From NCBI GenBank assembly GCA_937944855.1, contig CALFAY010000022.1, forward strand, positions 14,507 to 78,506: a stretch of DNA of 64,000 bases, written 5' to 3'. A program made the position numbers and the translations under genes. Source of the stretch: an uncultured Planctomycetota bacterium. GTDB taxonomy: Bacteria > Planctomycetota > Planctomycetia > Gemmatales > HRBIN36. Below are positions 18,320 to 31,744 of this stretch, one piece after another (position 1 is the first letter of the stretch; each line of letters opens with the position of its first letter). Below the pieces are notes generated by a model. It was not told the DNA's origin. It saw only the letters and a list, made by a program, of their open reading frames with translations, and searched no databases.

Positions 18320-18856
18320 CGCGGCACTCGCGGCGGGGTTCGGGCGGGCGATGTCGGGTGATGTTCTACGGACCTGAGGGTGAACCGAACATCCTGCTGC
18401 ATCGGGTCGGTCGTGCGGTAGTCCAGGTCGCGGAGCTTGCGGCCCAGGCTTTTCCTCGAGTTGCTGGGTGACGGTCAGGTTGATCGCGGCGGGTGGGCCA
18501 GCCGCGGCTCGGCCGGTGGGGGAGCGAGGCGCGACTGGTACGGCCGGCCCGTGCGGCTCGCTTCCGCCATCGCCTCGTAAATCTCCAGGATGACTCGCTT
18601 CGTGCGGTACTCGCCGTACTGCTCTTCGTCCTTGCGGCGAACGATGGGGAAGGTGTCCAGGATGTAGGCCGCGTCGTCCCGGCTGATGCCGTAGAGGTGG
18701 AAAAACGCCGCGTCGAGTTCGCACCGCAGCAGGAAACGTCGCTCGGGATCCCAGCGGAACGGCGGGCCGGCGTAGCCGCAATCCTCCGCGAACGGCTGCA
18801 TGTCCCAGGCGGTGTAGAGCAGCTCCAGGACCCGCGGCAGCAGCCAGGAGGAGAGT

Positions 18857-18914
18857 GAGTCGGGAGTGGGGAGTCGGGACTCGGGAGTCGGGCTGACCGC
18901 CACTCCCCGTTCCC
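18857..18914. repeat. Heptamer tandem repeat A (GAGTCGG/GAGTGGG), in frame within the methyltransferase
   Basis: gagtcgg gagtggg gagtcgg gactcgg gagtcgg, then cactccc; encodes SPTPESRLPTPDS. Confidence 0.85.
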
Positions 18915-19304
18915 AGGGGCACGGCTGAGCGTAGGTTTCGGGCGGAAGAACGGGGAGTTGCTTGTAGATGAAGAAGTTGAGTGATGACCCGCCCATTTTT
19001 TGACGCGATACATAGTCATAAACAAACGCAGAAAGATTTGCTAAAAGGCAACCTGCGCAACCTGTGTGAGTATCAGCTATTAACATCAAAGGCACTTTGT
19101 TCCCCACGCCCACACGCGGCAGGAGGCTGGCGATGACGGTGCGTTCGTTGGTGGTGTTGGTGATGTCGCGCCAGCCGAGGAGCCAGGGGCGATCCCATTT
19201 GTCCTCCAGGCGGGCTTCGACTTCGGCCGCGGGCACCCAGTACCGCGGTTGCACCTGAAACTGCGGATCGCGTTTCTCTTGCGCGGTGCCTTCCCGCACC
19301 CCCT

Positions 19305-19332
19305 CTCCCGACTCCCGACTCCCCACTCCCCC
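19305..19332. repeat. Heptamer tandem repeat B (CTCCCGA), inverted relative to A
   Basis: ctcccga ctcccga ctcccca ctccccc; encodes GGVGSRESGE. Confidence 0.8.
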
Positions 19333-19529
19333 CTCATACGTCGCCCAGCGGTGATCGAACTGGTGCAGCATCTTCGCTTCGTACAGCGGCAGGTACTCGC
19401 GCCCGCCTTGGCGGAAGACATTCCCGTCCAACTGCCAGCCGTCCTTCTCCAACTGCTCCCGCGTGCGGAACAGGTGCGAGTCGTTGGCCATATGGAACAT
19501 CGCCAGGAACTTCACGCCCCAGGGGTTGG

Positions 19530-19676
19530 AGGGGGAATGGGGAGTGGGGAGTGGGCAGTGGGCAGTGGGGAGTGGGGAGTGGGGAATGGGCAGTGGGGAC
19601 AAGGCTTTCGACTCCCGATTCCCGATTCCCGACTCCCCCGCCTTAACTCCCGACTCCCCACTCCCGACTCCCTCCC
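19530..19676. repeat. Palindromic heptamer element C (GGGGAGT arm / ACAAGGCTT core / CGACTCC arm)
   Basis: About nine GGG(G/C)A(G/A)T units, core acaaggctt, then CGA(C/T)TCC units; in frame. Confidence 0.9.
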
Positions 19677-20370
19677 GCACCAGCACGGGCACGCAGCGGT
19701 AGATGGCCTTGGTCAGTTCGGCATCGCGGCGGGTACGGAAAATCGGACAGGTGCGGGTGTTGGGGTTGACCAAAGCAATGTCCTCGGCAGAGAGTGTGAA
19801 CCGCCGCTCGGGATCGGTCAGTTGTTCGGTGTTGTGCAGGAAGAACGCGAACTCCGCCCCTTGGTTCTGCGGCCGGGCTGGGCCGGTCAGCGTCAGCAGG
19901 CAGAACTTGTAGCTGCGGTGAACGCCGGGGAAAATCGCGTCCCGATTCTCGAAGTCGTAGAGGCTGACGAGGGAGCGTTGGTCCACCAGGTCCTGAAAGA
20001 ACAGCTTGGTGGTGTCGTCGGTGGCGATGCCGGACGGGACGATGCAGCCGACGCGGCCAGTGGGGTTGATGAGCGCGCGGTTGAGTTCAGCAAAGAGCAT
20101 GTAGGTATTGACATCGCCGCGACCGCAGAGGGGATAGCGGCCGGAGTTGCGGACGAAGTGGCTTTCGCCTTCGGCCTGTCGGCGGTCTTCGAGGAACGCC
20201 CGGTACAGGGCCGGGTCTTGTTCGGCCAGTTGGGCGATGAGTTTGCGGCGTTCGGCTGCGTTGCGTGCCTTGGCGATGTCTGGTCGGCGCTGGGCGAACC
20301 ATTCCTGTTCCTGGAGCTTGATGCGTTCCCACGGCGGATTGCCCAGCACAAAGTCGAAGCCGCCGGTACA

Positions 20371-20467
20371 GTGGGGGGAGTGGGGGGTGGGGAGTGGGGA
20401 ATGGGGAGCGGGGAGTGGGCACAAGGCTTCCGACTCCCGCCTCCCGATTCCCGACTCCTCCGCCTTC
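20371..20467. repeat. Palindromic heptamer element D, homologous to C
   Basis: GGGGAGT-type units, core acaaggctt, CCGACTC-type units and terminal ccgcctt shared with C; in frame just before NPPW. Confidence 0.9.
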
Positions 20468-22727
20468 CACGCTCCTATCACAGGTCGGAAGACGTCAGGG
20501 AAGGCCAGGTGCCAGTGGAAGAACTGGTACTGCTGGGCGAGTCGGCGGATTTCGTCGTACATCCAGGGGGCGACGTCGTGGGGATGGCGTTCGACGCGGC
20601 GGAAGAGGTCTTCCGTGACGGCGTCATCGAACTGTCTGGTTTTTTTCCAGACGAAAGCGGCACACCAGAGGTCCGCGAGGAAGCGGCCGGAGGAGCGGTA
20701 GCTCGTTTCGGAGACCAGCTCGGCGTAGCGTTGCTCCTTGGAGCGGATGTGAGCTAGGCTGTCGCTGGGCAGCGCGTCGAGTTCGGCCATGGCGGCGGCG
20801 AGATTGCCGAGTTGTTCCCAGGGGAAGCGGAGCTGGCCCTGCTCGTGATCCGACCGCTCCTTTTTGTTCCGCTTCTTCAGGGCGGTGCACAGCGTCTTGT
20901 CGTCTCCTTCAAGGGGTTGGAAAGCTTCGTCGGGAATGCCCTGGGCGAGCAGGGCCGGGGTCGCGCCGAGGAGGCTGTTGCCGCACTGGATGTGGTGGTC
21001 GAGGAAGGAAAGGGGCTTGCCGGGGACGAGGGCTTCCATCCAGAGGGCGACCTTGCAGAGTTCGACGGCCATGGGGTTGAGATCCACGCCGTACAGGCAG
21101 CGTCCGATGATGTCGCGGAGGGCGTGGCGAAGGCGGCGGGTGAGGGTTCGTCCTCGCCGGTGCGGATGGAGGCGAGGCGTTTGGCCATGCGATGAGCGGC
21201 GGCGATGAGGAAATGGCCGCTGCCGCACGCCGGGTCGCAGACCTCGAGGGCGAGGATCGCGGCCTCGGCGTCGGGCTTTCGGGCAGCTTCGTCCAGCACC
21301 GGGTCGAGGGCGGAGTCGAGCAGGCAGTTGATGAGGCTGGCGGGGCTGAAGTAGCTGCCGGTGGTTTTGCGTTCGTGTCCGCTGGCGGTGTGCAGGGTGA
21401 AGGTGCCAGCTTCGCTGTTGAGGACAGGATGCAGCTCCAGGAGTGACTCATAGACGCTGCCCAGTTCTTCAGAGCCGAGGTTGCGATAGTCCACGGTGCG
21501 CAGCACGTCGCCATCGCTGGTCAAGGCCAGGGCGCGGATGGCTTCGAGCAGGTCGGCATTGGCAAGCTGGCAGCCGTGCAGGTCGGGGATGGCGTTCGGA
21601 GAGAGCAAGAAGCTGCCCAGGGCCGGCAGTCCGAGTTCGGGACAGCCGCCGTTGCCCAGCCGGTCCATGATCAACGTGAGCATTTGATACAGGTCAGTAT
21701 GTTGGGTGCCGCGGAGGCGTTCCGCCAGGCGGCGCAGTCGGCTGGTCGAATAGAAGCGCTGGTAGCGTTCTCGGGCGGCCTCGCTGGCCTGGGGATCGAG
21801 GAGGAGTTCGCGGTCTTCGGCGACGAAGAGAAACAGCAGGCGATAGACCAGCCGGAGCAGTTGGCGGTAGTAGTCCTGGGGGTTGAGGCGGCCGGAGCGG
21901 AGGCGGTCGCGGAGGGTCTGGTTGGCAGGACAGGACAGGAAGCCGCTGCCCAGCCGGGCGATGGCCTGCTCGACGCCGGTGCGAAACTGGTCCAGGACGC
22001 GCAAACCTTGCTGCCGAGCGAGCCTGGACCATTGCTCCAGCCAGCATTCTTCAGGTATTTCCGCTTCGACACGCGACTGATGACACAGCCGCCACAGCAG
22101 GGCGAAGTCCGCATAGAGCTGGCCGTCGAACATCGCCTGAAGGTCGAACTCGACATAAGCCTGCCGGGTCAGGCGGATGTTGTCGCGGAGGATGCGGAGC
22201 TTGAGGCCGTTGCTGAGCAAGCCCCACAGGTACTCCTCGGAGCGGTTGAGGAATTCTTGCACGAGGCTGTGCGGGCTGGGACTGCCGGTCGTCCGCTTGT
22301 CGAGGTCAGCGCGGCAGCCGACGAGATGGATGGGGACATGGTGCCAGGCATGGGAGATGGGGTAGGCTTTTCCCCCGATGACGAAAGGGACCTTCAGGGA
22401 TTGCAATCGGCCGTAGCCCAGTTCCTGAAAGAGGGGAAGCAGCCAGCGTTCGCGGGTCACTGTGGTGCCCGATTCGGTCGGGGCGAGTTTGTCCCAGGCG
22501 GCGCGGAAGGAGGCCCAGGCACTCTGAAGCCGGTTCCAGGCGCGGTTGGTGGCTTCGTTGAGCTTTTCGTCCTGGAGCAGGTGGTAGGAGGTCGGGTTCA
22601 GGCCGGGGAGGTCATTATCGCCGGCGGCGATCCGCAGAAGCAGGTCGGCCGGGAGGATGGCCCCTTCGGTGCGGAGCGTGGGAAAGCGGTCAAAGGACGA
22701 TGTCGGCACAGCAGACTCCTGAAATCC

Positions 22728-25541
22728 TCAACCCTTTGGCAAGTGAACAAAGATGCCGAGTACGTCGGGAGGCAGTTGCGGCTCGACGCGGTGGCTGACG
22801 CCCTTGGTGCGGCTGGCGGCGCGGACGCGCCGGTGGGCTTCCAGGAGTTCCTCGCCCCGCTGGCGGGCATGTTGTTCGAGGTGAGGGCGCAACACGTCAA
22901 GACCGTCCAGGACGACTCGCAGGAAATGGGCCGCCTGGTCGGGCGTGACATTGGCTTCGGGTTCGGCCAGAAGCAGCGCCTCGGCCTGGTCGGCGGCCAG
23001 CCATTCCGCGTTCTGTGGCGACCCCGCGAAGGCCAGCAATTGCGAGTCTTCGGCGAGCAACGGGCGCTCCTGCTCGCCGTAGCGGGTAATGATGTGGAAG
23101 CGCAGGCGGAGCAACAACAGCGTGGTGCGCCGTCCGACCTTGCTGGTGCGGATGACGCCGCAACGCCGGGCCACACTTTCCAAGTGTGGATCGAGGGCCG
23201 TGTTCAGGACGTAATTCGCCAGCCGTTCCACCAGGGGGTGTGTTCGTGTCAACAGAAGCTGGCCTGAAGAAACCGGCAGCTCGAACCGAGCCGAGAAACG
23301 GATGGGCGCTCCGAGCGTATCGCGCAAGGAGCGAGGAGCTTCGGAAAGATCAACGCGAATCGGGTCGGTGCCGCTGACGCTTGCCCCGTAGGCAGCAAGC
23401 GCGGTGCGGGTGAATGCGGCCACATCGACGCCGGAACCGACAGCGGCCCGGGCAGCTTCCACCTCCCGGACCACTTCGTCCACCTTGATCGTCTCCTGGG
23501 CGAACATCGTCCGCGAGCGCTTCTCCCGCTCGGCAGAAGCTTCCCAGGTGCGACGCAGTTCGTTCCCTTCCACCTCACTGAGGTACTCTTCAAACAACTG
23601 CGGTTGGACCGCCTTTCGGCCGCGAAGCAACATGCCCTCAAAGACGGCCTGGATGACCTGCTCGCTATCCATCGGCAATGGTACGGAGATCCCCAGCGAA
23701 TTGCGGATGGCGCGGTGCTTGCGGAGCAGGACGTCGAGAACGACGCCGTCGATCTGGTTGTCCGTGCCGTAGTAGGTCAGGGTTCGCACGTTCGGGCTGG
23801 GCTGGCCATAGCGGTCCACGCGGCCCTCGCGCTGTTCATGCCGGGTGGGGTTCCACGAGAGGTCGTAGTGGATGACGGCATTGAAATGTTGCTGAAGATT
23901 GATTCCTTCGCTCAGGCAGTCGGTGCAGACCAGGACACGTTTTTCGGCCTGTGCCAGTTGCGCCACCCGCTCTTCGCGCACGACCGGGGGCAAGTTGCCG
24001 GTGATGGCCACGACTTCGACGCCTTTGAGCCTCTCGCGCAAGGCGGAGGCGACGTATTCGGCAGTGGGGATGAAGCGGCAGAAGAGGATGGGCTGAAAGC
24101 CGTCGCGGATCAGTCCCTCGACGATGGGGATGACTTTCTGGAGTTTGGCATCCTTGCGGCCCTGGAGGGCGTCGGCCTCACGGGCCATTGCCAGGAGACG
24201 AGAGCGGACGGGACCGGCATCGTCGGCATCCTCGCCCGGATCGCTGCCGGGTGCCAGGTCCATCGCCTCGCTGGATTCCTCTTCGACGAGATCGAGCACC
24301 GTGCGGCGGCCGAGGGCGTCGGCCTCCTCGGGCGAATCCGTGTCGGCAGTGGCGGCGCGGGTGCGGAGCGTCGCAGCAGCAGCCGCGGGACTGGAGGCCA
24401 TCGACCGGAGCAAGGCCAAGGCCGACCACCAGCGGACACGCTGCCGCTGGGCCGTGACTGTTGCTGCCGGGTCCGTCACCGTCTCGCGTGCATACTCCAG
24501 GACCTTTTGAAAAAGCTGCTTGTACTCAGGGGAAAGTTTGTAGGTTTCCTCGGCCTCTTCGCGTTCGGGGAAGGGGGTGTCGGCCTGCATGTAGTGGCGA
24601 ATGTCACCACGCCGGCGTTGGACGAAATGGGCTGCCAGCCGACGGCGATGGTGCTGGTTGGCCGGGCCGCTCAAGTCATCCGGCAGGTTGCCGAAGTCCC
24701 GGTCGAGTAGGGTGAGCAGGGCGCGGAAGTTCTCCTCCTTGCCACTGTGGGGCGTGGCCGTCACCAGAATCAGATGTCGGTCCGAGTCGGCAGCCAGACC
24801 TTTCACGAGTTGATACCGTTGGTGTCGGCTGCCCCGGCCGTCCTCAGCCCCAAGGCAAGTGTGCGCCTCATCCACGATGACCAGCTCGGGACAGGCCCGG
24901 AGGAAGTCGTCGCGGCGGCGATCAGACTTGATGAAGTCGGTCGAGACGATGACGTAAGGGTGACGTTCAAAGATCGACTGGCCCAGGCGGCAGGCTCGCT
25001 CCAGCCGCGTGACGGTGCCCGGCAGGACCAATTCGGCGTCGAGGTGGAACTTGCTGCTCAGCTCCGTCTGCCACTGTTCGGCAATCTGTGGCGGACAGAG
25101 GATGGCAAAGCGGTTCACTTCGCCGCGGTCGATCAACTCCCGCACGATCAGGGCGGCCTCGATGGTCTTGCCGATGCCGACGTCGTCAGCGATCAGGATG
25201 CGCACCGGGTCGAGCTTGAGGGCCATGAGCAGTGGAACGAGTTGATACGGTCGCGGCTCGAACGCCAAGTGACCAAAGCAGCGGAACGGCCCGGCACTGG
25301 AGCGAAAGCCCAGGCGCAAGGCATCCCGCAGCAACCGACAAGAGCGGTAGTCGCCGAGTTGGGAGGGATCGGGCAGAGGGAACGAGGCTGCCTCAACACG
25401 TTCCAGGGGCAAGTAAATGCCCGCTGTTTCATCTTCTCCTCCGCCCAGAGGGCGAACGATGATCAGGTCGTCTTTTGATTCGGGCAGGACAACCCAATCG
25501 CGGCCGCGAGCCCGCACTAACGAACCGACAGCAAAACTCAT
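22728..25541 (-). CDS. SNF2-family helicase (DrmD-like)
   Basis: ADDVGIGKT, VDEAH, TATPHSG, SEGINLQ, WNPTRHEQREGRVDR. Start overlaps the upstream stop (ATGA). Confidence 0.92.
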   Translation of the reverse strand: MSFAVGSLVRARGRDWVVLPESKDDLIIVRPLGGGEDETAGIYLPLERVEAASFPLPDPSQLGDYRSCRLLRDALRLGFRSSAGPFRCFGHLAFEPRPYQLVPLLMALKLDPVRILIADDVGIGKTIEAALIVRELIDRGEVNRFAILCPPQIAEQWQTELSSKFHLDAELVLPGTVTRLERACRLGQSIFERHPYVIVSTDFIKSDRRRDDFLRACPELVIVDEAHTCLGAEDGRGSRHQRYQLVKGLAADSDRHLILVTATPHSGKEENFRALLTLLDRDFGNLPDDLSGPANQHHRRRLAAHFVQRRRGDIRHYMQADTPFPEREEAEETYKLSPEYKQLFQKVLEYARETVTDPAATVTAQRQRVRWWSALALLRSMASSPAAAAATLRTRAATADTDSPEEADALGRRTVLDLVEEESSEAMDLAPGSDPGEDADDAGPVRSRLLAMAREADALQGRKDAKLQKVIPIVEGLIRDGFQPILFCRFIPTAEYVASALRERLKGVEVVAITGNLPPVVREERVAQLAQAEKRVLVCTDCLSEGINLQQHFNAVIHYDLSWNPTRHEQREGRVDRYGQPSPNVRTLTYYGTDNQIDGVVLDVLLRKHRAIRNSLGISVPLPMDSEQVIQAVFEGMLLRGRKAVQPQLFEEYLSEVEGNELRRTWEASAEREKRSRTMFAQETIKVDEVVREVEAARAAVGSGVDVAAFTRTALAAYGASVSGTDPIRVDLSEAPRSLRDTLGAPIRFSARFELPVSSGQLLLTRTHPLVERLANYVLNTALDPHLESVARRCGVIRTSKVGRRTTLLLLRLRFHIITRYGEQERPLLAEDSQLLAFAGSPQNAEWLAADQAEALLLAEPEANVTPDQAAHFLRVVLDGLDVLRPHLEQHARQRGEELLEAHRRVRAASRTKGVSHRVEPQLPPDVLGIFVHLPKG

Positions 25542-28500
25542 GTCTTCTTCCCGAAAATGTGGGGGTAACGGGCCAGGATGTTCTCCCAGTCATCCTGATG
25601 GTGGAAGCGGATGACCGTGTAACCAGCGTCTTCCATGCACTCGGTCTTCATCAGGTCGCGTTGTGCTCGTTCGGGGTAGTCGTGGGGAGGTCCATCGATG
25701 TAGATCGCCGCCTGATACTCCTGGTAAAAGAAATCAGGGCGCGTCTGGCATCCTTCGATCCGATGTTGAGCGTGGCTGGGAAGGCGAAGGTTGTGTGCTT
25801 CCAGAAGCCTCAGCCAGCGCCGCTCCAACTCTGAGCCAGCCAAGCCCTCGAGCATGGCGAGGTGTTCGGCGCGGGTCTGGCCGCCCGGGGCGGTTTGCGC
25901 GCGGGCCTGGGCAAGCCGAAGCAGCAGGTCGCGGATTTTCTGGCGATCCAGGCGGCGATGCACCGGTTGGTTGCCGTAGTGCATCAGGCAGTCGTAACAG
26001 GCAGCTTCGCAATCCTCACGGGCCTGCTCTGCACGGCGTCGGTCTTCTCCGGTGTCGGGGTCGAAGTGGCAGATCTCCAAAGCTCGACGGGCGACTTGGG
26101 CGAAGGCATCAGCATCGTCGAGCAGCCGGCGCAGCACACCGGCCCCGCCCTCGGCAGACTCGTACAAGAGCAGGAGACGTGGCCGATCTTCATTGGGCAG
26201 CAGCTCGGTGGCCAGCTCGTTCTCCTCAAGTTGGTACTGGACCTGGATGGCGTTCTTCAAAGCGGCCTGCAAGGAGACCATGCAGTCGAGATCGAGCGGC
26301 CTGACCGGTTCAAAAAGCAGGCAGTTACGGTGGTCCTCGACGTAAGGGATCACCCGCTCCGTGCGAGGCGACAAGGGGTCTTCGAGGTCGTCTTCGTTCT
26401 GCTCATTGCGCGACCAGAAGCCCCGCTCTTTGTCGAGAACGAAGCCGAACTGGAACTTATTGTGGCGACGGGACCAGCCCAAATTGATTCGCCAGAGGGT
26501 GGCGGCCCTGCCGTACGTTAGCGTGGCCAGGAGGTCGGCCCTCTGCATCAGGCGTGCATTGCGCTGAACAGGCATGCCACCTTGTTCGGCCAGGCGGATG
26601 CCGGTGCGGATGTCGTAGCCGAGGCGAAGCCGCTCTTCCTCGTCGCAGTTGATCCTGTCGCGCCGCTTGGTCGCTACGTTTTGCAGGCGGAGGAGCGGTC
26701 GTAACGGCGGCGGCAGCGCGCTGCCGCATCGCTGGCACAAATCCGGGCCAAGACATTCGGGAATCGGATGCAAGTAGCCGCACTGGTCGCACTGCTTGGC
26801 CTGAGTAGTGAGCAGATCCTCGTCCTGCACCGGCAGAATAACTTGGTTAATGATGTATCGTGAGCCTTCATGGTAAACAATCGCTCGCGGACCGAATTCG
26901 GAAATGGCGAGGAAGCGTGGGCGGGACAGGTACTCCTCGCGTTGCCGAGTGCGGCGGGCTGGGATGAAGGCCGACAGCGGCAGACGCGGAAAGCTGTAGC
27001 CCGGCAAAAAGCCCTCGCTGGCGAAGTAGCGGTAGCTGTAGAAGTCGCTCTGGGCGAAGTCTTCGGTTTCTGTCAAAAGCTTGAGCTGTGCCTCGGCTTC
27101 GCGCCGCAGGCGCTCGGCCTGCTGCTTGTCGGCCAGCGGCCGGGAGGCGTCACGGATGATGCGGTCCTGCGCTGTCGCCTGGGTCAAGGCGGAGCGGTAT
27201 AGCCCTCGCCAGCGTTCGCACGCCTGATCGAATTGCCGTACTACTTGGCTGAGCACTTCGTCCAGCCAGCCGGGGGTGTACCAACCGCCCTGGTGCAATT
27301 CCTCTTCGAGGGAGGCCAGCACGCGCTCGGCTCGGGCCTTAGCCCGCCGGCGCGCCTCCGGGGATTCGACAGCACTGCGGACGCTGGGCAACAGCTCGAG
27401 TGTCGGTTCGACACCTCTCAGGTCGAGCAGGTCGCTGAGGGATTTGCCCAGGCTCAGGCCGGTTTCGGCCAGCCATATCGCTTGGACGTGCGCGCGGATC
27501 ATGTCCTCATTGGCGAGGTCCAGGCGCGGAGGCGTAACTGCCCCACAGACCATGCGTTCCGGGCGGCGAAAGAAATACTGATCGTGGGAACTGCCCGTTG
27601 AACAGTAGGAGATCACTAACGCAGGTTGGCCGCTCCGCCCGGCCCGACCGCTGCGCTGAGCGTAGTTGGCGGGCGTCGGCGGAATGTTACGCAGGTTGAC
27701 AACGTTCAGGTCGGAGATGTCAATGCCCAGTTCCATCGTCGGCGAGCAGTACAGGACCGGCAAAAGCCCCTTACGGAAACGGTCCTCCCGATCGAGCCGC
27801 TTCTCGTAGGGAACTTGGGCAGTGTGCTCACGGGCCTCCAGCCCGTGCAGCGAGGCGGCCACGTTCTTGTAGAAATCCACGAAGAACCGGTTTGTCCGAC
27901 TTCCGGTGGAGGGTAATCGTGGCACGCGGATGGGATCGTGGAGGGGACGCGTTCCATCTCCAGCGACCCAGAGCAGGGTCGAGGCGGGGACCTGGTAGCC
28001 AGGCACGTCGTCGTTGCCACGAGCCGGAACGACAGCCTCGACTAGACCGCCGATTTGCAATGCACGCAATAGGTCGCGGATGATCTGCTGCCGGTCGTCC
28101 AGGGTCAAGCGGCCCGGCGTCTTTCGGAAGGTGCTTCTCCGGCCGAGGTATTGGCCGAATCCGCCGCGTGCCGTCAAATAGACGTTGCCGCCGTAGTCAT
28201 CCTTGCCTTGCCGGGGTCGTGGGAAAAGGACGGCGGCGTGTTCCATGTCCGACGATTCGTTCTCGTCGATGGCCCAAGGCTCGATCAGCCGCTGGCTGCT
28301 TTGCTGCAGGAGGTTCTCTTGGTAGGTCGGGTCGAGATAATCGACCTTTATCGCCAGCTCCCGCCGCATGAAGTCGAGAAGGACACGGGCCACACGCTGG
28401 CGGGTCTCGGCACTGGCTTGTTGCAATACTGGGTGACAGTTACTCCAAACGTCTGGGGCCTTGCAGACCTCTTCCAGGGAAAGATAGCGGATTTCCAGCA

Positions 28501-30717
28501 GGCCGCACTGTTCCAGATTCGGTGCGGTGACGCGCCATCCACGCTTGAGGTCACGGTAAAGGCGATAACCAAGGACATTTCGCAAGGCCCGCTGCGTTTC
28601 TGCCAGAGCCTGAAACTTGGCACTGGGGTTGCTAGCGTACATTTCCACCGGCAGCCTGAGCGCCTCGAAGACGCGCTGGGTCAGTTCCTCGTGCCGCAAG
28701 CCAGACTCTCCGGCAGCTCGGACCGCGGCGAACAGCGCGCCGCGCAGCAGGCTTACCTCGACAAAGTCGTTGAAATGTCCCGCTTGGAGCGAGGCGTCCT
28801 GGCGATTGTCGGTGAAGCTGAGCAGCTTATGCGCCTGCGGGTCCAGGTCGCTGGCCTTCAAACCCCGAATGGCCGACAGGCTCAGGATGGTGGTCGCCGT
28901 GCTACGGCCCTCGGAACCGAGGGCAGTCAATTTACCGAAGTCAGACGTCTGCAGAAAGTTATACGCTACGCCACAATTCAGGCAGAAACGGAACGGGGCG
29001 GTGACGAAGTAGCCGTCCCGCCCCTCAGTGCCCTCCACTCCATCCGGCCCGACCCGAACAGGCTGAGGGAGATCCTTCTGGCGGCTCGGCTTCACACGCT
29101 GCTGACCTCGGTGCTCTTCCACCCAGTCATCCGGAAGCCGGTCCAGCAATTGGTCAAGCTGATCGCCCGGCCAGGGATTGTTGCTGCTGAAATACAGGTA
29201 GCCCGCCACGTTGTCGTCGTTTCCAAAGCGGTCTCTCAGCTCGCGCGGCTCATAATGGATGCGTTGCCCTTCGTCTTCCGAAACTTTGCGGACGCAGTAG
29301 TATTCCTGGCCGCACTCCCGGCAGAAGACCAGCGGCAGCAGCACACGCTGCCGATCGCCGGGTACGAACTGCTGACCGTGCAACGTCAGGTAGCGGTCGG
29401 CCTCATTCTCGATGGAGGCGTAGACTGTGTCGCCTCGACTAATGAACTGGTGCAGTCGGAAGGCAAAGAGCGGTGGATTGGTCAGAGGGTCGCGCTTGCA
29501 GCGATAGCTGGCTTGAAGCTGGTCCTGGATGGCTTGAACGCATCGCCCGATGGAAACGCCTGTCAATCGACTGAGGGTGACAGCGGCTCCGTTAGACCCG
29601 CCGATGCTTTTGGGCGATACCCGGACCAGCCGCTCACTCCCCGGCTCCGCCTGAACACCGAAGGTACTTTCGATCCAGATCGACAACGGGTCGTTCACAA
29701 AGTCTTGGTAATCGGCAGGTGGTTGACGGGACGGATCGGCCAACCGCTCGGTCAATGCCGCAACGAACGCTGGGTCACGTTCGTCGCGGGGCGGCGTGGC
29801 CCGGCGCAGCGTTTCGCCGATGACGTGTTCCGGTCGGACGGGCACGCCGAAAAGCTGGCTGGCCACACTGGCAACCTGGGCTTGTTGCTCGGCGAAAGAG
29901 CCGGCGCCTGCCAGCGTCGCGGACGTGCCAATGCATTGCAGGTGCGGGGCGTTCAAGGCGTCGCGCACCCGCCGGATCAGCAGGGCCACGTCCGCCTTTG
30001 TCGTCCCCGGTAGGTGTGAAGCTCGTCCAGCACCAGAAACCGAAGCCCCTGACCGGCACTGACCAGTGGTTGCTCCTGGGGCCGCGTCAGGATCAACTCC
30101 AGCATCACATAGTTGGTCAGCAGAATGTCCGGAGGCTGGGCGAGGATGCGTTCGCGTTCGGCACTGGATTCCTGCCCAGTGTATCGCTAAAAAGTCACCG
30201 GGCCGCGCCCGTCCGGGTAGCCGTGGCAAAGGAACTTGTGTAGCTCACCTCGCTGGCTATTCGCCAAAGCGTTCATCGGATAAACGACGATGGCCTGGAT
30301 TCCTCGGCCGCTACCCATACGCAGGACATAATTGACGATCGGTACCATATAAGCCAAGCTCTTGCCCGAGCCGGTGCCTGTGGTGAGGACGTAAGACTCG
30401 CGGCTCTGGGCGATGCGGATGGCGTCGGCCTGGTGGCGGTGCAAACGAAGAGGGCGGCCCGTGCTCGACGGCTCGGGCTTGATGCGAAAGACCCGACTGC
30501 ACTCGCTGTGGAGGATGCCTTGGGCGACCAGTTCGTCGATGGACGGGCCAGACTCGAAGGACGGATTGAGCTGAATAAGTGGTTCGGGCCATAGAACTTC
30601 GGACTGGAGTTGCTGTTCCACGAAGTGCCGGAGCCGTTCGTCGCTGACTCGAATGAAGCTGCGTATGTAAGCCGCGTAATCCTCGATCACCCGGCAACGG
30701 AGTGCAAAGATATTCAT
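25538..30717 (-). pseudogene. YprA-like DEAD/DEAH helicase with DUF1998 and C-terminal Vsr/DUF559-like nuclease; premature stop and frameshift
   Basis: TGTGSGKS, YPMNALANSQ, DELHTYRG, SPTMELGID, QRSGRAGR, CEAACYDCL, RPDF...IDGPPH. In-frame TAG at 30187-30189 (VTF*RYTGQE); one base missing near 29996 (YRGRQ|ADVALL). Confidence 0.9.
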
Positions 30718-31744
30718 CGCGCCTCTCCCCCATGCCAACAGGTGGCTTTCGACCAACCAGGCAATGATGCCATGAAACCTGGGGCTACTGCTCCGCAGTG
30801 TAGCTTGGTGGGAACGACACCCGTACTTGCTTTTTTGTCCATCCAAATGATATCCGCAAGCTGGGCAGGGAACAGCCAAGGTTCCGAAAGGCAGGAAGGT
30901 AGCAAAATAATGTTGAGCGCCGGACAAAGAAAGTGCCGGCGGATACACCCAAATCTGGAAGGACCTGGGCGCCCAGCTTGGACAAACGAAACGAACGGTT
31001 AGCGGAGGCAGAAGCAAACTTCCGTGCCCGGCTGAATTCCTCAACTCGTGATGATGCCCTCAGCAGCCTTTTTGACGGAGTTTCTTTACCAACCATGGGT
31101 CGGGCGAAACCGGCCGCGAGCAGTTCCTGCCTTCGTTTGATCCCCTGTTTCAGGCCAGCAGAGTTCATTTCCGAACACCGGTACCCTCCTTCACACTAAT
31201 TGGCCTATGTTATGCTGCGAATTGCGGAAACGTTGGAAAAGTAAGAGCCAACAGGCAGAAGCTCGGTGAGTGTGTTATTATCAAGCTGCAATCGCAGTTC
31301 TGCCTTGCAGCTTTAACTTCAGCGATGCAGGAAGCCAGCGGAGTGATTTGCCATCTCGAAATGGGACCATCTTCCTGACTACAAGGCACGAGCTCTCGTG
31401 CGTTCGGCACTGCGCAGAATGAGGAGATCTCAAGGCGGGCCTTTCACCAAGCGTGAGATACGTGAAATCGTACCAGATGTGATGCAGTTGTCAAAAGAGG
31501 AGTGCAATATTTCAACTTGGACGAGGGAGAGGTGCAGACTTCTTCTCTTAAGACTCTTGGTTCGAGGCCTGATTTATGACCCTCGTCTCGAATCGGGTGC
31601 CTCACCCGATTCGGCGACACACGGCGAATCCGATAGTTCGTAGCTTACTGAGAGTTGACAGTGTACCGCGTTATTGGTCCGGACGATCAAGAACGGATTC
31701 ATCGTTAAAGCCATGGGAACCGTGTTCCCCTTCGACGTGACAAT

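Follow-up and report, generated by a model that had tools for sequence, protein, structure and literature searches.

The window analysed here is a 64,000-nt stretch of contig CALFAY010000022.1 from an uncultured planctomycete of the Gemmatales (assembly GCA_937944855.1, positions 14,507 to 78,506 of the forward strand). Its minus strand encodes, between 18475 and 22709, one large N6-adenine DNA methyltransferase that is Eco57I/type IIG-like and DrmMI-like and lies in two pieces. Within the C-terminal piece we encountered tandem arrays of heptamers of the type GGGARTN at four sites (18853-20467), here termed elements A to D, all of which fall in the same open reading frame (ORF). The gene is compared throughout with its orthologue P0393, an intact methylase of 1671 aa from this family, which shows 81% identity to each half of the window gene and is encoded on a different, independently assembled contig of 263 kb. 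The elements and the gene that carries them are arranged as follows:

18853..18916: element A, five GAGTCGG-type units, the core GCTGACC and two inverted units; encodes ...ERGVAVSPTPESRLPTPDSL
19296..19338: element B, a single arm of about five units, C-rich on the plus strand; encodes GVGSRESGEG
19528..19675: element C, a palindrome that encodes an insert of 43-48 aa; G-rich arm 19528-19599 (about 10 units), core ACAAGGCTTTC at 19599-19609, C-rich arm 19609-19672 (about 9 units)
20368..20467: element D, a palindrome and paralogue of C; G-rich arm 20375-20419, core ACAAGGCTTCC at 20421-20431, C-rich arm 20430-20458, followed by CCGCCTT
18475..21228, minus strand: C-terminal part of the methyltransferase (P0001, a 917-codon ORF), with the NPPW motif and all four heptamer elements inside
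21127..21135, minus strand: frameshift that splits the methyltransferase gene, one base lost relative to the orthologue P0393, outside every heptamer array
21130..22709, minus strand: N-terminal part of the methyltransferase, in ORF 20877-22709 (P0003), homologous up to ...EPSPAAF

Tandem Repeats Finder reports period-7 arrays in the window only at 18857-18892 (element A), 19300-19335 (B), 19528-19599 and 19609-19672 (C), and 20375-20419 and 20430-20458 (D), with the consensus units GAGTCGG, GGAGTGG, GGGGAGT and CGACTCC. Pattern counts give the same picture: with up to three mismatches allowed, 31 of the 32 matches to GGGAGTSGGGAGTSGG in the window lie at the four sites (5.15 expected), as do all five matches to the stricter GGGARTNGGGARTNGGGARTNGG, which stands for three units GGGARTN (0.00 expected). 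No heptamer array was found outside the methylase gene within the 64 kb, so that the original prediction, which had placed four arrays in one gene and none elsewhere in this stretch, is borne out. The same is true of the reading frame: the minus-strand ORF 18475-21228 runs through all four elements with no stop, and the encoded peptides are of the GVGSGESG... or GVGSRESG type and of the ...PLPTPHSP type. The C-rich arm of C is interrupted by GCCTTAA.

Elements C and D are related to each other beyond their repeat units. A gapless alignment of 19593-19645 with 20415-20467 gives 47 identical bases out of 53, and the 9-mer core ACAAGGCTT occurs in the window only in these two elements, both of which have a loop of 11 nt (ACAAGGCTTTC or ACAAGGCTTCC). 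The common core shows that copying took place, and C and D are copies of one element, in line with the earlier proposal that they are homologous palindromes. The proposed count of two palindromes holds for C and D and needs amending for A, which is a weak palindrome in the window and a full one in P0393; B is a single arm.

It could instead be supposed that each array grew in place, by slippage from unit-like host sequence such as R-E-G codons (CGG GAG GG), with no mobile element involved. By eye, the junctions do blend into unit-like host codons (VREG before C, VREG after B and PWERG before A), B is a single arm with no core, and the same conserved motifs would account for recurrence of elements at the same sites. 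Independent growth is nevertheless unlikely, as C and D agree over 53 bases both in a core that is not repetitive and in the order of their variant units, and slippage in one direction does not make palindromic arms around a loop. No direct repeat that would mark a target-site duplication could be discerned by eye at the ends of the elements, which are ill-defined.

The arms of C are 60 nt long and 75% complementary. Folded as DNA, the plus strand gives long imperfect hairpins for both C (-46.5 kcal/mol, z -5.5) and D (-26.7 kcal/mol, z -3.2), and folded as RNA in mRNA sense the two elements reach -90.1 kcal/mol (z -6.4) and -48.8 kcal/mol (z -3.9) respectively. In both cases the fold of the plus strand (antisense to the gene) is better than that of the mRNA strand. 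The fold of A is no better than that of shuffled sequences, and no hairpin was found for B when its fold was compared with shuffles. The elements also contain six of the 11 canonical G-quadruplex (G4) motifs of the window, recognised by their sequence pattern and distributed over both strands:

18862..18892, plus strand: G4 motif
19522..19598, plus strand: G4 motif
20373..20419, plus strand: G4 motif
19293..19333, minus strand: G4 motif
19614..19639, minus strand: G4 motif
19649..19676, minus strand: G4 motif

These properties raise the question of whether methylase expression is held back by the hairpins of C and D or by G-quadruplexes of the arms, which would stall the RNA polymerase or ribosome or provide an RNase III site. 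The stems of 23S rRNA intervening sequences (IVS) are RNase III cleavage sites. In the Coxiella IVS, as far as the accessible text of PMC4990558 goes, a series of tandem heptamers, variable in number, stands just upstream of the S23p ORF, and its first repeat is where the RNase III site is located. A regulatory role in the methylase gene would be in keeping with this precedent, with the strong folds in mRNA sense, with the G4 motifs on both strands and with the retention of the palindromes in both orthologues. We give it a low probability, however: selection on the mRNA is a poor fit to the better folding of the antisense plus strand, neither A nor B folds significantly, and an Rfam search with 18400-21300 matched no family, returning only generic hairpin (microRNA precursor) models below threshold, at 17-37 bits against gathering scores of 49-168.

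Comparison with homologues shows that the elements are insertions, located in variable loops, relative to most members of the family, as had been anticipated. In an alignment of 15 homologues all four sites are gapped in the majority of rows and fall where the proteins vary in length, C appearing as a 43-column insert; P0005, which is 75% identical, has none of the four elements, and phmmer alignments to representatives at 50% identity are interrupted at query residues ~256-288 and 520-567. An AlphaFold2 model of P0001 (16-row alignment) was poor, with a mean predicted local distance difference test (pLDDT) score of 48 and a predicted template modelling (pTM) score of 0.26, and its low-confidence segments, which cover the four inserts but also much else, were not used as evidence for linkers. 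A sequence search of the PDB with P0393 gave no match at E <= 0.001.

A search of 5.8 billion proteins with the peptide that C encodes gave one strong match beyond the window's own protein, namely P0393, together with one weak match of 37 bits; apart from the latter, the core of C and D was found in this search only in the orthologue. P0393, which had been missed by the first homologue search owing to its length, is the sister of P0001 (support 99) on a tree of 43 rows (P0001, P0393 and P0005-P0045) that was built by a quick method with SH-aLRT support only, the insert columns having been dropped by a 60% fill rule. All four elements recur in it at the positions they have in the window gene, each of them longer and all in frame, by 21 aa at D, 23 aa at C, 7 aa at B and 36 aa at A; the excess at D (63 nt, or nine units) and at B (21 nt) is an exact multiple of 21 nt. 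In P0393 the elements coexist with an uninterrupted frame of 1671 codons. The presence of all four at the same sites, with other lengths, shows that they were already in the common ancestor of the window genome and the P0393 genome, and that the arms have changed length, so as to differ between the two genes today.

The same comparison bears on whether the arrays could be collapsed or chimeric repeats of a draft assembly. The two frameshifts and one in-frame TAG of the operon (described below) could reflect poor assembly, but the independent assembly that contains P0393 has the four elements at the same sites and the frame is kept through all of them in the window, and an artefact, which the original prediction had named as a possible flaw, is hardly credible.

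Other repeat-derived in-frame inserts are seen in the methylase family. These include PPMNADERR...IGVHRRASAV in P0008, three tandem copies of LSPNRGLTPPAH in P0011, LTPGPSPAGRGE-type repeat inserts in P0007 and P0011, and the insert VLPPPHPSPPGEESRVRGE in P0393, located at a site where P0008 has a similar insert.

The composition of the repeats makes them easy to read through. In arrays of units whose seventh base is G or C, none of the six frames contains a stop; the elements as wholes are free of stops in the gene's own frame and in most other frames, and three units amount to 21 nt, so that the same 7-residue periodic peptide results from every frame. A change of one unit, being of 7 nt, nevertheless shifts the frame, and each of the four arrays has a different length in P0393, which would suit a contingency locus in which heptamer slippage switches the defence methylase off and on. 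Such switching has precedents: the Streptomyces gene pglX is switched by a G-tract, and type III mod genes of some pathogens are switched by simple repeats (phasevarions). The window arrays resemble these systems, as generally described, in having a unit that is not a multiple of three within a defence methylase gene; unlike them, the tracts are short, imperfect, several to a gene and not near the 5' end. Their longest perfect period-7 runs are of 13-22 nt, or 1.9-3.1 units, and the arrays are found throughout the C-terminal two thirds of the coding sequence. All four differences to P0393 keep the frame, no out-of-frame allele was seen, and the sole frameshift of the gene lies outside the arrays. 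Similar arrays also occur in housekeeping genes of other bacteria (see below), and Rehm et al. (PMC4692102), in the accessible text, judge phase variation unlikely for the (GGGANTN)n class of repeats. The suggestion of phase variation in the original prediction is thus quite improbable.

On its testable defining features, so far as these are given in the accessible text of Rehm et al. 2015 (PMC4692102), the set of window elements belongs to this (GGGANTN)n heptamer class, described there as G-quadruplex-forming repeats in Xanthomonas and Nostoc. The window arrays have two or more tandem 7-nt units, heterogeneous among themselves, with G at positions 1-3, A at 4 and T at 6, and contain four or more consecutive G-tracts (a G4 motif, by sequence); C and D each form a convergent inverted pair. 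The same text gives 186 repeats for X. campestris, with 70 cases of two nearby sites in convergent (inverted) orientation, and places 89-93% of the repeats of Xanthomonas and 68% of those of Nostoc in intergenic regions (intragenic 7-11% versus about a third); formation of G4 structures was demonstrated in vitro and no function was found. Unit, heterogeneous tandem arrays that range from a few units to tens, convergent inverted pairs, an intragenic position for some copies and the lack of a known function are therefore common to those repeats and to ours, whereas the window copies are found in a planctomycete, are all intragenic and in frame, lie four to one defence gene and include two with a common non-repeat core.

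To place the elements among other genomes, 185,579 species genomes were scanned for three GGGARTN units, and at least 130 loci were found, the matches listed being an arbitrary sample with none from the window's own genome. Judged by the record titles among the matches listed, 47 of 80 titled loci are cyanobacterial; other hosts among them are Xanthomonas, Lysobacter, Chloroflexota, Acidobacteriota, Bacteroidota, one Gemmataceae metagenome-assembled genome (MAG) and two archaeal MAGs. The first 80 among the matches listed have 1-kb flanks, and at 12 of these the frame through the array stays open for 100 codons or more to either side. Ten of these 12 have Pfam domains of ordinary genes, which comprise tRNA-guanine transglycosylase (TGT), DnaE, RecJ, GcvP, CobB/CobQ, PFOR, a histidine kinase, GH116, a poly(A)/CCA polymerase and an AMP-binding enzyme; one is domainless and one (L051) is a member of the same methylase family. 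The inserts in those genes are built like those of the window, with G/S/E-rich and P/T/H/S-rich arms on either side of a short core, and the notion that the element is specific to the methylase gene has to be given up.

Two of these loci (L031 and L032) lie 2.4 kb apart on the Terriglobia MAG contig JBEKEZ010000001.1, with in-frame heptamer palindromes in a tRNA-guanine transglycosylase and a DnaE-type polymerase. The acidobacterial DnaE-type polymerase (L032) has a second palindromic element that is derived from a different repeat.

A search for the core together with the arms had been proposed as a check, and it was productive for the arms alone: the core ACAAGGCTT of C and D was found beside none of 130 heptamer loci among the matches listed. 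The many dispersed copies with one internal sequence that characterise miniature inverted-repeat transposable elements (MITE) or REPINs were seen neither among these loci nor in the search of 5.8 billion proteins.

Rickettsia palindromic elements are of about 100-150 nt and of fixed sequence, and form in-frame insertions that are translated as extra loops. The window elements resemble them as palindromes in frame within coding genes and differ in consisting of tandem heptamers; a relation in sequence is not expected. Heptamers of the short tandemly repeated repetitive (STRR) type, and small dispersed repeats embedded in heptamer arrays, have reportedly been described in cyanobacteria (Mazel 1990; Elhai 2008). 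STRR sequences are like the window arrays in being tandem heptamers, G/C-rich at one end, dispersed over the genome and also present within ORFs; the window unit is one base off the STRR1 unit, and its host is not a cyanobacterium. A literature search for heptamer repeats in Planctomycetes, or for in-frame G4 heptamers in bacteria, returned nothing relevant.

The distribution of the elements within the methylase family was examined in two ways. All 6-residue peptides that GGGARTN arrays can encode were listed and the homologues containing one were counted: such peptides occur in 10 of the 119 best methylase homologues and in 2 of the 120 best homologues of the SNF2 helicase that is encoded next to the methylase (Fisher p = 0.019). 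The helicase is much the better conserved of the two: on the contig pair with P0275 and P0005 it is 87% identical and the methylase 75%. On the tree described above, two changes are needed at site D, two at C, three at A and one at B, and those at D, C and A would imply that the same loops gained or lost elements more than once. The mobile hairpin targeting this gene that was originally put forward is favoured by the C/D copies, by the enrichment in the family and by the two to three changes at D, C and A, and is not supported as regards targeting, given palindromes of the same kind in genes of other bacteria.

The methylase relative L051 (Ardenticatenaceae MAG contig JACKBU010000015.1; 54% identity to P0003 over 518 aa) holds two small heptamer palindromes and, in addition, a cassette of ~470 nt between heptamer arms (L051:1560-2030). 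A different frame of the same strand codes, within this cassette, for a 23S-rRNA-IVS/four-helix-bundle protein (PF05635, 132.9 bits; TIGR02436, 131.8 bits), and the host frame is the only one of the six that is stop-free through the cassette. The host-frame cassette peptide recurs, at different positions, in 7 of ~270 methylase homologues (P0015, P0393, P0127, P0017, P0242, P0163 and P0133) and in none of 120 helicase homologues, a difference that is not significant (p = 0.11). Full and empty forms of the same heptamer flavour stand side by side in one gene in L051, P0015 and P0393. Four-helix-bundle genes were found between inverted heptamer arrays in six of seven cases inspected, from four phyla; those outside the methylase family are:

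L018:1001-1520: S23p gene between convergent inverted heptamers, Chitinophagaceae (Bacteroidota)
L070:990-1790: S23p gene between convergent inverted heptamers, cyanobacterium
L131:2906-3409: S23p gene between convergent inverted heptamers
L133:60-700: S23p gene between convergent inverted heptamers
L133:2894-3442: second S23p gene of this locus between convergent inverted heptamers

L131 and L133 (twice) derive from Calothrix and Nostoc plasmids, and L132 is a partial case in which only the downstream array is evident. The heptamers around these S23p genes vary (GGGAATA, GGGTGTA and GTCGGAG). A preference of four-helix-bundle genes for restriction-modification loci was not borne out at three cyanobacterial plasmid loci, where they adjoin integrase or transposase genes and not methylases.

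The elements of the window possess the inverted tandem-heptamer arms of an IVS-type cassette, and no PF05635 or TIGR02436 ORF lies between them. A tblastn search of the window with the L051 four-helix-bundle protein gave nothing better than E = 0.72, no transposase domain is present in the 38 long ORFs of the window, and no transposase or integrase is found in it; of the neighbouring transposase or four-helix-bundle gene that had been suggested, neither is present here and the latter was recovered in relatives (L051). By eye, no relation was seen between the ends of the L051 cassette and the core of C and D. The 7-mer GCTGACC (18893-18899) that forms the core of element A has the same place in the first of the small palindromes of L051 (L051:694-700), in a different phylum, which may be chance for so short a sequence.

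Taken with the Coxiella IVS as described in the accessible text of PMC4990558, the likeness to 23S rRNA IVS consists in a hairpin-forming element with tandem heptamers beside an ORF, GGGARTN arms bracketing a PF05635 gene in the methylase relatives; the window elements differ in that they have no ORF in the loop and are hosted by a protein-coding gene and not by rRNA. A tentative proposal, to which we give clearly less than even odds, is that the window palindromes represent an IVS-like hairpin cassette in its empty form, the full form carrying a PF05635 gene between inverted heptamer arms. Such a family would live in coding genes by virtue of its translatability in the host frame, and would have entered the same loops of a single methyltransferase family again and again, in Planctomycetota, Chloroflexota and elsewhere. 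If true, this would tie together heptamer repeats, IVS elements and the PF05635 proteins of unknown function, with a model of spreading that can be tested. We found no paper on heptamer-armed four-helix-bundle cassettes or on their in-frame nesting in methylase genes, in a literature search that left subscription journals mostly uncovered.

The reading that we prefer, with a probability of roughly 60%, is that the four elements are tolerated hairpin-repeat passengers, whose arms vary by slippage and of which only frame-preserving variants survive. C and D at least would have arrived through the copying of one hairpin repeat element and not through four separate slippage events; intragenic duplication, conversion and transposition are indistinguishable here as routes of copying. 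Replication slippage would subsequently have lengthened or shortened the arms, and the length differences to P0393 fit this. Lengths divisible by three would give rise to loops rich in Gly/Ser/Glu and in Pro/Thr/His/Ser, which are probably disordered and would be tolerated by the enzyme, and out-of-frame variants would have been eliminated by purifying selection on the gene. That all four elements are in frame would then follow because selection on a working gene leaves such variants, and would not be a property of the element. The passengers would have no required function of their own, and their potential to form hairpins and G-quadruplexes would be a side effect borne by the gene.

Several considerations weigh against such passive tolerance. 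A hairpin of the 65-bp class, at -90 kcal/mol as RNA, should be costly in an mRNA, and its retention in two lineages could mean that it is used. The window gene is broken, which makes present-day selection on it doubtful and leaves the argument from selection to rest on P0393. The census of arrays in the window's own genome covers the 64 kb of the window. The clustering of four elements in one gene, with none in the other 62 kb, is a hint in the same direction, as are the enrichment of heptamer-type peptides in the methylase family over its operon partner and the apparently recurrent changes at the same three loops (D, C and A) in separate lineages; together these hint at more than neutral tolerance. 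A looser, loop-rich methylase could also explain the enrichment and the recurrence without targeting.

The host gene belongs to an operon whose other members, encoded upstream in the same orientation, are as follows:

22728..25541, minus strand: intact SNF2-type helicase, DrmD/DpdE-like
25538..31044, minus strand: large helicase with MrfA Zn-binding (DUF1998-type) and DUF559 domains, disrupted

The order on the minus strand is thus large helicase, SNF2 helicase and methylase. For the last of these, 8000 homologues were found by sequence search. P0001 scores 66.2 bits with Pfam Eco57I (cut-off 25.3) and, among the PADLOC models, 148 bits with REase_MTase_IIG and 115.7 bits with DrmMI; P0003 scores 93 bits with DrmMI. 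P0003 carries DPACGSGHFL and ends at ...EPSPAAF, and P0001 picks up at RHALRD and continues via NPPW to the C-terminus. As P0393 reads EPAPAAYRNALRD uninterrupted over this join, the window gene has lost one base near 21127-21135 (at about 21130). The gene that was taken for a defence methyltransferase is not intact as a whole, the frameshift being either that of a pseudogene or a sequencing error.

The SNF2 helicase has the Pfam domains SNF2-rel_dom and Helicase_C, and its best named matches are from Gemmataceae (84%) and Gemmatales (80%). It scores 886 bits with DpdE and 273 bits with DrmD in PADLOC, and 315.7 bits with the NCBIfam model DISARM_DrmD, which is under the cut-off of 610. Compared with class 1 DISARM (DrmMI methylase and DrmD helicase), the host system is called DISARM-like only, since REase_MTase_IIG outscores DrmMI, DISARM_DrmD falls below its cut-off and no PLD-type DrmC was seen.

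In the large helicase, an in-frame TAG is present at 30187-30189 (VTF*RYTGQE) and a frameshift near 29995-30005, ~190 nt downstream of the TAG, in the DEAD domain (TYRGRQ / ADVALLIRRVR). The operon thus carries three defects, the methylase frameshift and the TAG and frameshift of the helicase, and the defence system is probably decaying in the window's genome, unless the assembly is error-prone. Within the methylase gene there is also a patch of low GC content at 18940-19119 (0.47, versus 0.6-0.7 around it) that encodes GNKVPLML...VYDYVSRQKMGGSSLNFF; homologues fall into alternative versions at this position, and the patch may be a segment exchanged with a lower-GC relative. The remainder of the window consists of ordinary genes, including one for a DUF1559/N_methyl protein; such proteins are typical of Planctomycetota and, like the Gemmataceae and Gemmatales matches of the SNF2 helicase, speak for a planctomycete host.

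The repeat class to which the elements belong is already known, without an assigned function; the present case extends it to a planctomycete. As judged from the window gene and P0393, the elements have persisted in frame within this enzyme across a speciation event while the lengths of their arms changed, and the pair of genes would serve as a natural experiment on the load of hairpin/G4 DNA and of disordered peptide that a coding gene can carry.

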